Of a stretch of 64,000 nucleotides of DNA, positions 57,261 through 62,564 are shown in pieces. The DNA is from an uncultured Methanoregulaceae archaeon (GTDB lineage: Archaea; Halobacteriota; Methanomicrobia; Methanomicrobiales; Methanospirillaceae). Below the pieces are notes generated by a model. That model did no database searches. It was not told the origin of the DNA and saw nothing but the letters and a program-made list of their open reading frames with translations. The stretch is taken from positions 1,888,001 through 1,952,000 of the forward strand of contig OY970061.1 of assembly GCA_963705255.1 (NCBI GenBank). Direction: 5' to 3'. The stretch's first letter is position 1, and each line of letters begins with the position of its first letter. Both the position numbers and the translations under genes were made by a program.

Positions 57261-58138
57261 GGTGCGACCACCGCTCTCAGGTAATATAATACTCCGAGGT
57301 TTACAATACCGAGCGTCCCGGCAACAAGCCATGCGCTCCGCAGTGTCAGCTGCCATTTGACACGCGACATCGTATTATCGATGAGTATCTCAAGGAAATA
57401 GGCGACGATGATCGCGGCGATGGCGATCAGGGGGTTGAACCCGAAGAAGAGGTAGACAACCCCGAGCAGGAATACGTACTCGTACCAGTGGGCGATCTCG
57501 ATCTTCCCGAGGTTGGGGCCTGCGAAATCGGTTGTAACACCCTTGACGATCTCCTGGTGCGCATGGTGGGACGTGGAGAGGTCGAAGGGTGACTTCCTCA
57601 GCTTGATCGTGAGGACGATCAGGTAGCCGATGAAGACACCGGGCAGAACCAGGATGATAGGTTTACCGGACGATACGATATCGCTCACATAGAAACTGTG
57701 GGTGACCATGTACATCCCCACCGCGGTGAAAATGATCATCGGTTCGTAGGCGATGATCTGAATGAGCTCGCGTTCCGCCCCGATATGACTGTAGGGAGAG
57801 TACGATGAATAGGCCCCGAGCACGAGGAATATGTGCGAGAGCGTGAACGCGAATATGACGAGCAGCATGTCCCCTCCCGAGAAGAACAATGCACCCGCGA
57901 CCACCATGAAGACAAGATAGCTCAGCACATAGAAATTCTGGGTCGTTGTCACCACCGGGTTCTCTTTCTCGAAGAGCTTGCCGACGTCGTAGAATGGCTG
58001 GATTATAGGCGGTCCTACCCGACCCTGCATCCTTGCAGTCACCTTCCGGTCGATCCCGGCAACAAGCCCGCCTATCACCGGGGCAAGGAGGATATACACT
58101 GCCGCAGTCATAATGGAGGACCAGGGTTCTTCGATCAC
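57257..58138 (-). CDS. echB: Ech hydrogenase subunit B
   Basis: DRKVTARMQGRVGPP and KSPFDLSTSHHAHQE. Confidence 0.94.
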   Translation of the reverse strand: MIEEPWSSIMTAAVYILLAPVIGGLVAGIDRKVTARMQGRVGPPIIQPFYDVGKLFEKENPVVTTTQNFYVLSYLVFMVVAGALFFSGGDMLLVIFAFTLSHIFLVLGAYSSYSPYSHIGAERELIQIIAYEPMIIFTAVGMYMVTHSFYVSDIVSSGKPIILVLPGVFIGYLIVLTIKLRKSPFDLSTSHHAHQEIVKGVTTDFAGPNLGKIEIAHWYEYVFLLGVVYLFFGFNPLIAIAAIIVAYFLEILIDNTMSRVKWQLTLRSAWLVAGTLGIVNLGVLYYLRAVVAP

Positions 58139-60049
58139 AGAATCACCCCCGCGATCAGGACACCGGCAATGAGCACGAGCCCCCAGCAGAGCAGGACACC
58201 GATCATGAAGAGTCTCTCCTCACCGAAATAATTCCGCAGGTAGTAATTCGACAGGACAAGGTCCCGGGTCGTCCCCATCGATCCTGCAAACTTCATCTCT
58301 CCTACGGTCGAGCCTCCCCCCATGTACGGGTGCGTGATGACCTGGTCGCGCCTCTGGAAGAGCATGGAAAAAGGCATGATCATCAGGAGTGCAAGCATCA
58401 GGATCATGATGGTGAGGTTCGCCTGGGCAAGACGGGTTGTTTCCCCGTAAATATGCATCACGAACGGCTCGATCAGCGTCGACGATATCAGGGGGAAGAT
58501 GAGAGCGACGATGACAACCAGTGCGGTAAGGATGGACAGGATCGCCCACATCTCCGTCTTTACCTTCTGCTCGACATTTTCCTGGTTGCGCATGACGGAG
58601 ATGATCTTCCCCATCCACTTGCTCCAGAAGAAGAGGCTTGCCGACCCTCCGAAGGCAAGGATGGTAATGAAGACGAGGCCGAAGGGTGCCGTGACGAACG
58701 CCTCGATTGCCGCCCATTTGGAGATGATCATGCCGAAGGGTGCGAGGAACATCCCGGCCATGCCGATGAACATCATGAGAGCGACCTTCGGCATGCGTTC
58801 AATGAGGCCCCCCATATCCTCGATGTCCCTACTGCCGATACTCTGCTCCACGGTGCCGACACAGAGAAACAAGAGTGATTTGGCTACCGCGTGGAATATG
58901 AGCAGCAGGATCGCCACCCACATGAGGTTGTAGGTCCCGACTCCTGCACATGCGACGATGAGGCCGAGATTTGCGATGGTCGAATAAGCGAGTACTTTCT
59001 TCGCATTGCTCTGGGATATCGCGATGAATGACGCGAGGAGGAAGGTGATCCCTCCAACGAGAGCGATCATGAGACCCTCCGTCGTTCCGGACAACACCGG
59101 AGCAAACCGGATAATGATATACACACCCGCTTTTACCATGGTGCTTGAATGGAGCAGGGCCGAGACCGGTGTCGGGGCGACCATGGCGCCGACCAGCCAC
59201 GAGGAAAAGGGCATCAGGGCAGCTTTCGTGATACCGGCAAAACTGATCAGGACTGCCGGGACCAGTGCTATAACGTAGCCAGAGCTTACCAGGGTATTGA
59301 GTTCAAACAGCCTGCCGGAAGGATCCATCAGGGCGAGATAAACCAGTGCTGCGATAAACGCGACCCCGCCGAGAAGGTTCATGGAAAGTGCGAGGAATGC
59401 ATTCGTGGTGGCTTCCGGTGCTCTGCGAATACCCGATCAGGACGAACGAACAGAACGTGGTGATCTCCCAGAAGAAGAAGACCCAGAGGAGGTTATTGGA
59501 AAATACGAGACCAAACATGGCCGACAGGAAGACAAACATCCAGAAAAAGAACGATTTTCTCCGGTCTTTTATTCCGGCGTGCTGGATATGGTACGTCTCC
59601 ATGTACCCAAGTGAATACACGCATATCAGGCTCCCGATAATGCCGATGATCATAGCCATGATGATGGAGAGCTGGTCGATGAGGAGGTTGTTCCCGAAAT
59701 GAGCGCCAGGAATAAGTCCGGTCTCTAAAAATATCAGCAATCCGGCCTGCAATAGTATCAGGACAACGGTGAACAACTTGCGGTGTTTTATTCCCACGTA
59801 AAGGATGTATACTGCAAGGAGCAGTTCGATAACGAACATGAGCTGCCCGACCTGTTCGGAGCCGAACGCGAAATAGAGCGATCCCTGATCAAATGCTACG
59901 AAAAGCAGGCACAGCACTATCAGGCCGATAACCAGCGCGGAGATCCTGACGATCCAGTTGCGATCCGCATCGCGCCGCACAAGAACCATGAACAGCGCCG
60001 TAATTAAAGGAAACAGGATGAGGAACACTAAAAACTGCGAAATCTGCAC
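58135..60049 (-). CDS. echA: Ech hydrogenase subunit A, frameshift near 59422
   Basis: FWEITTFCSFVLIGY in frame 1; NAFLALSMNLLGG...GAMVAPTPVSALLHSSTMVKAG in frame 2. Confidence 0.92.
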
Positions 60050-60363
60050 GAACTATCCACCCTCTCTGAATATGGGAATTTTTCATTATTAATCATATTG
60101 AATTGTGCACGGCCCCGTATTTCCCTTTCAAATAACAGGATTGTGCCGGAAAATGGCCGGGACCGGAAAAATAGAATCCACCGGAATTCCGAAAAATGCC
60201 GGAGATTCAGGAACATATTTCCGTGACCTGGTGCGGTCTGGTGCGGATTCTGCTGTAGGTTCAGGTGGGGATAAAAGTTTAATGTTTCAAAAATGTACTA
60301 ATAATCTCTTAGGATGGGATATGGACGAGTGCGGGGTGAGCCCCGGAGCCATTGCACCTTCCT

Positions 60364-60397
60364 TTGGGTCATTTGAGCAGGTTACTGCTGATGCCAA
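60364..60397 (+). ncRNA. Candidate Na+-sensing (DUF1646-like) riboswitch aptamer in the hppA leader
   Basis: TTGG-GTCATTTG-AGCAG-GTTA-CTGCT-GATG-CCAA: nested stems with GGTTA and ATGCC elements. The likeness to the DUF1646 consensus is from memory and was not verified by search. Confidence 0.45.
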
Positions 60398-60515
60398 TAC
60401 ATGATACCTGATGTGTCTGTCCCGCGTCCCGGTTCCGGCTGTTCATTCATTCAGTCGGGGTTCGGTCGTCCAGTCGCAACCGGGAGCGGGGGCAGCATGG
60501 CAGGAGGGTTTGGGA

Positions 60516-62564
60516 ATGTTTGAATTCGCGTTACCATTTGTGGTTATTGTAAGCGTTATTGCATTGATCGTCGCGGCATTCCTCGCACGCAGTGTCCTCT
60601 CTCAGGATGAGGGCACGCCGAAGATGCGCGAGGTCGCGGATGCAATCAGGGTGGGTGCAGAAGCATTCATCAAACGACAGTACTCGACTATTGCCATCCT
60701 GGCAATCATACTCGCTGTGGTCATCTTTGCGGTGTACTTCATCTCGGGTCAGCGGCAGCTGGCAATCGACACTGCCCTTGCGTACCTGTTCGGTGCGTTC
60801 TGTAGTGCGATGGCAGGCATCATCGGCATGTCCATTGCAGTCCGTGCAAACGTCCGCACGGCATCGGCCGCACAGACCAGCTCCGGAAAAGCGCTCGACA
60901 TCTCCTTCAGGGGCGGTGCGGTCTCCGGGCTGATCATAACCGCGATGTCACTCCTCGGTGTCTCGCTCACCTTCTATGCCCTTGGTGCAAACCCGACCGA
61001 GACCCCGTTCATCATTGTCGGGTTCGGTTTTGGTGCGTCGTTTGTCGCCCTGTTTGCCCAGCTCGGCGGCGGTATCTACACCAAGGCCGCTGACGTCGGA
61101 GCAGATCTTGTGGGCAAAGTCGAGGCAGGTATCCCTGAGGACGACGTCCGGAACCCCGCGACCATCGCAGACCTTGTCGGTGACAACGTAGGCGACTGTG
61201 CCGGGCGTGGCGCTGACCTGTTCGAATCAACCGCAGCCGAGAACATCGGTGCGATGATCCTCGGTGTGGCGCTCTTCCCGGTCTTTGGCATCAACGGCAT
61301 CCTCTTCCCGCTCGTGATGTGCGCCTTCGGCCTCATCGCAAGCATGATCGGCATCCTCTCCGTCCGCGGAAAGGACGACGCCGACCCGATGGTCGCCCTC
61401 AATCGCGGGTACTATATCACCGCCATCATCGCCGCTATCTTCTTCTACGTCGGCACCATGTGGCTCCTCGGGAACATCTGGTTCTTCTACGCCGGTCTCG
61501 TGGGTATCGTGATGTCGGTTGTCTTCCTCCGGGTGACGCTCTACTACACCGATCACAACTACCGCCCCGTGCAGGAGATAGCCGACGCGTCAGAGACCGG
61601 AGCGGCGACCAACATCATCTCCGGACTCTCGGTCGGGCTTGAGACCACCGCCATCCCGGCGATCGTCATCGGCCTCGCCCTCCTCACCTCCTACGCACTC
61701 GGTACCATGAGCGGTATTGCCAGCGGCGGGCTGTATGGTACTGCCGTAGCGACGATTGGCATGCTCTCGGTCTGTGCCTACGTCCTTGCCATGGACACGT
61801 TCGGCCCCATCGCCGACAACGCTGGCGGCATCGTCGAGATGAGCCAAGCCCCTGAATCCGTCCGCAAGCGCATGGACCGGCTCGACTCCGCGGGCAATAC
61901 CACGAAAGCGCTCACCAAGGGGTATGCGATCGGCAGTGCAGCGCTCGCCGTCTTCCTGCTCTTCAACGCTTACATGAACGACGTGGCCCACCTCATCTCC
62001 AAGCCATTTACCACCGTCAACCTCGCAGCGGTCCCGGTATTTGTCGGTGCCCTGCTCGGTGCGATGCTCATCTTCCTCTTCGCGAGCCTCGCCATCCGGG
62101 CGGTCTCCAAGACCGCACAGTATGTCATCACCGAGGTCCGTGAGCAGTTCAAGGATCCGGCCATCATGGCAGGGACCAAGAAGCCCGACTACGCCCGCGT
62201 AATCGATATCACCACGGTCGGTGCGCTCAAGAACATGGTCCTGCCCGGCATCATCGCCGTCGCGTTCCCCATCATCATCGGCGTCACCCTGAAATACGAG
62301 GCGCTCGCAGGGTTCCTGATGGTCGGCACCATCGCCGGCATCCTCCTCGCCCTCATCCTCAACAACGCAGGCGGCGCATGGGACAATGCCAAGAAATACA
62401 TCGAAGCCGGCGCCCATGGAGGCAAGGGCAGCGATGCCCACAAGGCAGCAGTCATCGGAGACACCGTCGGTGACCCGTGCAAGGACACCGCCGGCCCGTC
62501 ACTCCACGTGCTCATCAAGCTCCTCGCGACCCTGACGCTCGTGCTCGTGCCGCTCTTCATCTAA
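60516..62564 (+). CDS. hppA: Membrane-bound ion-translocating pyrophosphatase, predicted K+-independent
   Basis: GGIYTKAADVGADLVGKVE, DLVGDNVGD, GNTTKA (Lys at the Ala/Lys site) and GDTVGDPCKD. GGAGG RBS precedes ATG 60516. Confidence 0.95.
   Translation: MFEFALPFVVIVSVIALIVAAFLARSVLSQDEGTPKMREVADAIRVGAEAFIKRQYSTIAILAIILAVVIFAVYFISGQRQLAIDTALAYLFGAFCSAMAGIIGMSIAVRANVRTASAAQTSSGKALDISFRGGAVSGLIITAMSLLGVSLTFYALGANPTETPFIIVGFGFGASFVALFAQLGGGIYTKAADVGADLVGKVEAGIPEDDVRNPATIADLVGDNVGDCAGRGADLFESTAAENIGAMILGVALFPVFGINGILFPLVMCAFGLIASMIGILSVRGKDDADPMVALNRGYYITAIIAAIFFYVGTMWLLGNIWFFYAGLVGIVMSVVFLRVTLYYTDHNYRPVQEIADASETGAATNIISGLSVGLETTAIPAIVIGLALLTSYALGTMSGIASGGLYGTAVATIGMLSVCAYVLAMDTFGPIADNAGGIVEMSQAPESVRKRMDRLDSAGNTTKALTKGYAIGSAALAVFLLFNAYMNDVAHLISKPFTTVNLAAVPVFVGALLGAMLIFLFASLAIRAVSKTAQYVITEVREQFKDPAIMAGTKKPDYARVIDITTVGALKNMVLPGIIAVAFPIIIGVTLKYEALAGFLMVGTIAGILLALILNNAGGAWDNAKKYIEAGAHGGKGSDAHKAAVIGDTVGDPCKDTAGPSLHVLIKLLATLTLVLVPLFI

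Follow-up and report, generated by a model that had tools for sequence, protein, structure and literature searches.

The window analysed here, a stretch of 64,000 nucleotides from an uncultured Methanoregulaceae archaeon, harbours a gene for a membrane-bound pyrophosphatase, hppA, separated by a 466-base gap from a leftward gene, ending at position 60049, whose product is an antiporter-like membrane subunit. Does this gap hold a regulatory RNA, and if so, of what kind? An earlier note, made from the sequence of the window, had proposed that the leader preceding hppA contains a Na+ riboswitch of the DUF1646 type. On the basis of comparisons between related hppA leaders, we consider the leader to be a conserved RNA made of three domains, a finding that is better supported than the Na+/DUF1646 reading.

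The hppA locus and its promoter

The hppA gene (60516..62564, + strand) was identified by its PF03030 domain (845.7 bits) and codes for a pyrophosphatase of the K+-independent (H+) type. Comparison of orthologues indicated that the ATG at 60516 is its true start codon, since in-frame stops directly precede the equivalent ATG in these genes. The Shine-Dalgarno sequence, GGAGG (60503..60507, + strand), lies in a block before the start codon that is conserved in relatives, and its first two G residues are part of the last base pairs of helix P5 described below.

The divergent neighbour (58135-60049, - strand) resembles subunit A of Mrp/Mnh antiporters or a membrane subunit of the hydrogenase-4 kind. 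It is carried by two overlapping open reading frames of the - strand in different frames, one at 59303-60049 with a Proton_antipo_N domain and the other at 58135-59382 with a Proton_antipo_M domain. This could reflect a genuine split of the gene, a frameshift or an error in the assembly.

We aligned 19 hppA upstream regions, 18 from the genus and 1 from another genus. The alignment revealed a sharply bounded promoter block followed by ~105 strongly conserved nucleotides, then a spacer variable in sequence and constant in length, and lastly a conserved ribosome-binding region. Over 73 distinct upstream regions, conservation starts sharply with the block at 60270-60285, and none was found farther upstream. 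This block (60270..60285, + strand) consists of a purine-rich, BRE-like sequence, GATAAAAG, followed by a TATA-like box, TTTAATGT (60278-60285). Going by the archaeal consensus, we take these sequences for the BRE and TATA elements of an archaeal promoter. From the usual TATA spacing, the hppA transcript is predicted to start at ~60308-60312.

Between the TATA box and the first helix of the leader, P1, lies a near-invariant block (60286..60310, + strand), which stands out in the conservation line and includes alignment columns 1-11 at ≥95% identity. Its 25 bases are almost unchanged over the 73 distinct upstream regions, which exceeds what a promoter would be expected to need. Given the predicted position of the transcript start, this block is probably for the most part a DNA signal rather than RNA, and it may represent an initiator region or an operator acting at the DNA level.

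The pump encoded downstream

Because a sodium-sensing leader would be expected next to genes of sodium biology, the ion specificity of HppA bears on the earlier proposal. HppA of the window carries GNTTKALTKGYAIG, and we take the Lys of the GNTTK motif to be the mark of K+ independence. The best match among relatives of solved structure is the K+-insensitive H+ pump 8b37, with 498.7 bits, as compared with 435.9 bits for the Na+ pump 4av3. The association with sodium biology was therefore not found: the signature of HppA is that of K+-independent pumps, and its nearest relative of solved structure pumps H+. The NCBIfam name 'sodium-translocating pyrophosphatase' does not discriminate between the types, as it is borne by 12 of the 13 models with a match. 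In the Introduction of PMC12614893, K+-independent pumps are stated to be transporters of H+ only.

The hppA loci collected from the order (L001-L030) split cleanly into two pump types. Twenty of them, 19 from the genus and 1 from another genus, code for proteins with 71-100% identity to HppA of the window and carry GNTTKALTKGYA[IV]G. The 10 others, from other genera and at 47-50% identity, all have GNTTAAIGKGFAIG. Four members of the genus possess only the second kind of pump, to which they were assigned by their ~49% identity rather than by the motif. The pump type of the window is nearest to bacterial pumps (~60% identity), which hints at lateral acquisition. A search for related loci with HppA returned mostly bacterial pumps and one close relative (L032).

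Two compact domains and a candidate tertiary contact

The folding energy of the leader in the window is ordinary for its composition (z = -1.21, with 27 of 200 shuffled sequences folding at least as well), and the case for a structure thus rests on the comparison between species. This comparison delineated three domains in a leader of ~200 nt, all on the + strand.

Domain 1 (60311..60363) is an irregular stem-loop composed of P1, P1b and P2 and supported by covariation. In P1, AGGAUGG (60311-60317) pairs with CCUUCCU (60357-60363), and in P1b, 60321-60324 pairs with 60349-60352. Both helices are 88.8% paired in the alignment, and changes on both sides affect four of the seven base pairs of P1 and three of the four of P1b. 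P2 is a variable apical hairpin (60332-60336 with 60341-60345) that likewise forms part of the fold predicted for the leader in the window. It differs in length and sequence between relatives and is absent from one of them (L163), which keeps P1b.

Domain 2 (60364..60397) corresponds to the compact element that the earlier note had likened to the Na+ riboswitch consensus. It consists of P4, TTGG (60364-60367) with CCAA (60394-60397), built around P3, AGCAG (60376-60380) with CTGCT (60385-60389), and it is conserved and covarying in relatives. P4 is 90.8% paired, although judged by eye it has been lost in one divergent clade, and P3 is 95.9% paired. In our alignment A4 of 74 sequences, the P3 base pair is GC in 33 cases and AU in 32.

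The covariation scan also pointed to a candidate tertiary (pseudoknot) pairing between the two domains, AC (60325..60326) with GU (60368-60369), on the + strand. When all column pairs were scanned without bias, the top two were the P3 base pair and, in second place, 60326/60368. The latter is absent from the covariance model and is hence free of model-fitting bias. Position 60326 is the base following P1b, and 60368 is the base following the 5' strand of P4. This pair (33-98 in the alignment) occurs as AU 28 times, CG 21, UG 11 and GU 2, with 9 other combinations, in 71 cells (74 sequences, 3 of them gapped). A three-pair version of the contact is 83.4% paired, as compared with 15-60% when the partners are slid. 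Judging from these sequence comparisons, a covarying contact of 2-3 bp probably docks domains 1 and 2 onto each other. Another pair returned by the scan, between column 23 and the leading C of CCAA, fits no helix register and was set aside as a phylogenetic coincidence.

The linker between P4 and P5 (60398..60406, + strand) is moderately conserved in the alignments, with an ATCATA-like sequence in most relatives, and no pairing partner was found for it. Inspection by eye against the K-turn consensus revealed no such motif in the internal loops of P4/P3 or P5.

A long-range helix reaching the ribosome-binding site

Domain 3 (60407..60504, + strand) is a long-range helix, P5, whose 5' strand (60407-60432) and 3' strand (60480-60504) enclose a variable insert. 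The long hairpin seen by the earlier note downstream of the compact element forms the interior of this domain, which extends beyond the limits given there to CCTG and CAGG; its architecture is conserved and its sequence is not. The closing pairs join the invariant CCUG at 60407-60410 with CAGG at 60501-60504, and the latter covers the first two G residues of GGAGG. The Shine-Dalgarno sequence is merely touched by P5, not buried within it. Through this pairing, the conserved 5' part of the leader is physically tied to the ribosome-binding site ~100 nt away.

The closing helix of P5 was present in the minimum free energy folds of almost all 62 related leaders that we folded. We also counted P5 pairs without gaps, from anchors at both ends, in an alignment independent of any structure model. 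In this count, each of positions 1-4 pairs in 58-64 of the 64 distinct leaders, and a conserved A.G mismatch occupies position 5 in 46 of the 64. Positions 6-12 are 78.3% paired, as compared with 21-52% in shifted registers, with several types of pairs at each position. The P5 duplex of the window has a predicted energy of -36.1 kcal/mol. Cognate inner strands pair better than non-cognate ones (-10.7 versus -7.9 kcal/mol; median rank 0.15), an effect of moderate size. In most relatives, a weak hairpin (-2.6 kcal/mol) takes in the start codon together with the 3' portion of the Shine-Dalgarno sequence; the window's sequence lacks this hairpin.

At the apex of the P5 insert, the word YGTGCR was found in 35 of 72 spacers, as compared with 7.3 expected from shuffles, and at a nearly fixed distance. 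In related loci such as L115, L113 and L131, it is located 32-45 nt past the motif; it is not present in the spacer of the window.

Covariation support for the structure

Over all the helices of alignment A4, 88.7% of 1969 cells are paired, as compared with 34-51% when partners are slid by 1-3 columns, and 126 cells are changed on both sides, as compared with 10-34. The covariation score, 0.230, drops to 0.027-0.083 in slid versions and was reached by none of 500 shuffles. As A4 was fitted to the model structure, these pair counts are flattered, a bias from which P5 and the tertiary pair are free. We also assessed whether the changes arose independently, using a tree built on 330 nt of coding sequence that provides few well-supported contrasts and hence underpowered tests. 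The P3 base pair gave 7 contrasting pairs, with 4.5 changing the same way and 0 the opposite way (p about 0.06), and the tertiary pair gave 6, with 2.9 the same way and 0 the opposite way (p about 0.25, not significant).

A conserved, covarying structure in a 5' leader is a generic feature of riboswitches, and the hppA leader has it. Columns with ≥95% identity are concentrated in stems: of the 54 paired columns, 18 reach this level, and of the 52 unpaired ones, none apart from the CCUG of P5. This predominance of conserved bases in stems, observed in a sample from a single genus, is unlike classic aptamers; with one genus sampled, the identity levels of the columns say little about nucleotides of a binding pocket.

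Distribution of the element

We built a covariance model, R1, from 14 of the 19 aligned hppA upstream sequences and used it to search for further copies. It matched the window's genome just once (E 2.8e-29), and it likewise had a single match per genome in 75 of 108 genomes of the genus. The latter is a lower bound, since at least two further genomes have divergent versions. The N-terminus of HppA is encoded downstream in 73 of the 74 aligned copies, at a median distance of 100 nt (range 31-116), and the sole exception is a locus cut by a contig end. Among 24 genomes of the genus that we examined, R1 matched in 18 of the 20 with a K+-independent hppA and in none of the four with only the other type. 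The two remaining carriers of a K+-independent hppA have divergent versions of the element.

Beyond the genus, no R1 match was found at hppA in an order-level sample of 151 genomes, and another genus with the same pump type yielded no match. The sample contained one marginal match outside the genus (21.7 bits, E 0.084), in a genome of another family (L190:1501-1612 in G160). It lies directly 5' of a gene resembling those of ZIP-type metal transporters and ends in ACCTGATG, whose ATG is the start codon of that gene. This match is probably due to chance.

A pattern scan of all species genomes collected at least 80 loci, and among the loci listed, 15 had strong R1 matches. All 15 belong to records named Methanoregula, Methanoregulaceae or Methanomicrobiales. 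Among the matches listed, one weak match (22.8 bits) was in a bacterial contig. In these searches, the element was seen solely in Methanoregula-type genomes, and it matches no Rfam family. Our literature searches on hppA leader RNAs and archaeal candidates turned up no description of it.

No relation to the sodium riboswitch

The earlier note had based its proposal on three features: the compact element, the long hairpin and a pairing that would compete with the hairpin. All three are present in the window, and the first two belong to the conserved structure, whereas the third occurs at chance level (see below). The covariation that the note suggested looking for in relatives was found. The identification of the compact element as a Na+ riboswitch was not borne out by the search proposed alongside it. 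The corresponding Rfam family, RF03071 (named 'Sodium'; 55 positions, gathering cut-off of 40.5 bits), gave no match in the leader. Its best score in the whole genome was 15.3 bits, and the three places concerned are all outside the leader. In a permissive scan of 59500-61000 (E ≤ 10), none of the 4227 Rfam families matched the leader, and no family reached its gathering score anywhere in the window. Twenty homologous leaders of relatives showed no consistent Rfam match, and none to RF03071. The permissive scan did return six weak C/D-box-like matches, all inside the neighbouring gene. These lie at 59642-59738 on the + strand, opposite the antiporter-like gene; the best one, to sR17, reaches 18.4 bits (E 0.19) for a gathering score of 36, and they are probably due to chance.

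The idea that the compact element binds Na+ and that the downstream hairpins gate hppA does draw on the leader belonging to an ion-pump gene and on the two stem-loops that, according to PMC9337991, also make up the DUF1646 motif. As described there, the Na+-I riboswitch has two extended stems, called P1 and P2 there, with conserved nucleotides at the base of the former and in the loop of the latter. In the hppA element, the hairpin loops of P2 and P3 vary freely, and the conserved bases are in stems. RF03071 is also bacterial, whereas the hppA element is archaeal, has ~105 conserved positions, adds a long-range helix of ~100 nt and precedes a pump of the K+-independent, H+ type. The words 'pyrophosphatase' and 'hppA' have no occurrence in the main text of PMC9337991. 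Taken with the lack of RF03071 matches and the H+ specificity ascribed to such pumps, these differences leave a Na+-I (DUF1646) riboswitch at this place with next to no likelihood. The resemblance comes down to a cis element made of stem-loops in the 5' leader of a gene for a cation pump, and the leader is not a member of the Na+-I (DUF1646) family. This removes a false lead: nothing in the hppA leader speaks for an archaeal occurrence of the bacterial Na+ riboswitch.

Proposed function and alternative explanations

The broader idea of the earlier note, that a regulatory leader precedes the membrane pyrophosphatase gene, fares better: the structure is conserved and covarying, and regulation is probable. 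We take the element to belong to the hppA mRNA and to act in cis, as indicated by the single BRE/TATA-like promoter at 60270-60285, by a spacer with no conserved promoter and rarely a T-run terminator and by the covarying pairing of P5 with the bases preceding the Shine-Dalgarno sequence. No conserved promoter was found in the spacer in the 19-gene alignment, and runs of at least five T, as expected of a T-run terminator, occur in merely 2 of 72 spacers. The rarity of such runs makes control by premature termination unlikely. The element would act on translation initiation or mRNA fate, not on transcription termination. Domains 1 and 2 would form the sensor and P5 the link to the ribosome-binding site, and the binding of an effector would alter the grip of P5 and of the start-codon hairpin on that site. 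Our leading guess for the effector would be a small ligand or an ion connected with the energetics of pyrophosphate or protons. In general terms, we read the hppA 5' leader as a structured cis-acting RNA that probably controls translation, and from the sequence comparisons we put the probability of this reading at about 0.5. A narrower version is distinctly tentative, and we regard it as rather unlikely: the leader might be an archaea-specific riboswitch class with a new fold that senses, for instance, PPi or Mg-PPi, Mg2+ or pH and sets the translation of the pump through P5. With one gene in one genus, the gene context gives no hint as to the ligand.

We looked for signs of switching in 72 leaders. 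The earlier note had suggested that TGGACGA (60322-60328) and TCGTCCA (60466-60472) form a pairing that competes with the long hairpin, the two together acting as an expression platform. Runs of at least seven complementary bases between these regions were found in 14-24 of the 72 leaders, as compared with 11-15 after shuffling, and the pairing is not conserved. More generally, pairing between the 5' domains and the spacer was present in at most 21-25 of the 72 leaders, as compared with 10-16 after shuffling. We treated this as chance, and part of the excess may come from a shared CCGG-type word. The 3' strand of P1 (CCNUCCU) is complementary by eye to the Shine-Dalgarno sequence in the window, but as an anti-Shine-Dalgarno it has a mean pairing probability of 0.013 in predicted ensembles, with values above 0.2 in 2 of the 72 leaders, and in that role it is no more than an idea. 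In predicted ensembles, P1 simply forms (P > 0.5 in 55 of the 72 leaders), with no switch, and no mutually exclusive expression-platform folds were conserved in the set.

As no switching was found, the main rival is a leader that senses no small molecule and is either constitutively structured or bound by a protein or a small RNA. Its folded 5' end and compact three-domain shape would guard the mRNA from 5' decay, fix the rate of translation or serve a trans-acting factor. A single gene is involved, P1 begins at about the predicted transcript start, no alternative fold is conserved, and the highly conserved bases are found in stems and not in loops or junctions, all of which such a leader would account for. 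Nevertheless, the element is elaborate for mere protection, with its tertiary pair, its constant spacing of 100 nt and the A.G mismatch of P5; for the protein-bound variant, no candidate binding protein is known, and HppA itself, a membrane pump, is an unlikely autoregulator. This explanation is possible, and in our estimate somewhat unlikely. Conservation at the DNA level without any RNA function, that is, of a promoter combined with a transcription-factor operator, may well be the right reading for 60286-60310 alone, where 25 near-invariant bases go beyond promoter needs. Extended to the whole leader, it would leave unexplained the compensatory changes in P1, P1b, P3 and P5, the persistence of pairing in P2 in spite of sequence change, and the conservation over 100 nt beyond the predicted start, and we consider it very improbable.

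Two other readings would assign the conserved segment to a separate product. An independent small RNA gene adjoining hppA would fit with a TATA box of its own and the ~105 highly conserved nucleotides, but the covarying P5 joins the 3' tail to the bases directly preceding the Shine-Dalgarno sequence of hppA, the distance to the start codon is constant, and neither a conserved promoter nor a conserved T-run terminator was found in the spacer. We see little chance of such a gene. A leader peptide, whose translation would control hppA through ribosome stalling, was suggested by a frame of 27 codons that starts in the window with the ATG at 60321 and is preceded by the AGGA of P1. However, 16 of 74 relatives have no ATG, GTG or TTG at that column, the frames range from 5 to more than 60 codons, and close relatives read the conserved bases in different frames. 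With start codons missing and frames unstable in relatives, we rejected this upstream frame, which has hardly any likelihood left. Our preferred reading thus remains that of a structured cis-acting RNA in the hppA mRNA.

Relation to known RNAs and significance

Archaea have very few known cis-regulatory RNAs; the riboswitch classes known there include those for fluoride (crcB) and TPP. The hppA leader has in common with them that control would be RNA-based and in cis, in a 5' leader, but it precedes another class of gene and has no match in Rfam, whose 4227 families presumably include the fluoride and TPP classes. It is closer in kind to the narrowly distributed orphan riboswitch candidates that Weinberg et al. 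reportedly identified in 2017 by comparative genomics. As in those, a conserved, covarying structure with a narrow range and no assigned ligand is present upstream of one class of gene. The hppA element differs from them in its archaeal origin and its restriction to a single genus, with conserved bases mostly in stems, and in that it reaches the ribosome-binding site by a long-range helix rather than by a local sequestering hairpin. In RNA thermometers and in the expression platforms of translational riboswitches, the Shine-Dalgarno sequence is in or beside a helix. The leader of hppA resembles them by its helix ending on the Shine-Dalgarno sequence and by the weak start-codon hairpin of most relatives, but differs in the incomplete pairing of its Shine-Dalgarno sequence and in the long range and high stability of the helix.

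We know of no validated cis-regulatory RNA that was first discovered in methanogens, and the hppA leader RNA adds a new candidate for the control of archaeal genes by RNA. A compact leader backed by covariation, in front of a single energy-conserving pump and available in dozens of natural variants, makes a test case for translational sensing in archaea. Its study could reveal how the use of a pyrophosphate-driven proton pump is controlled in the methanogens of peat and wetlands.
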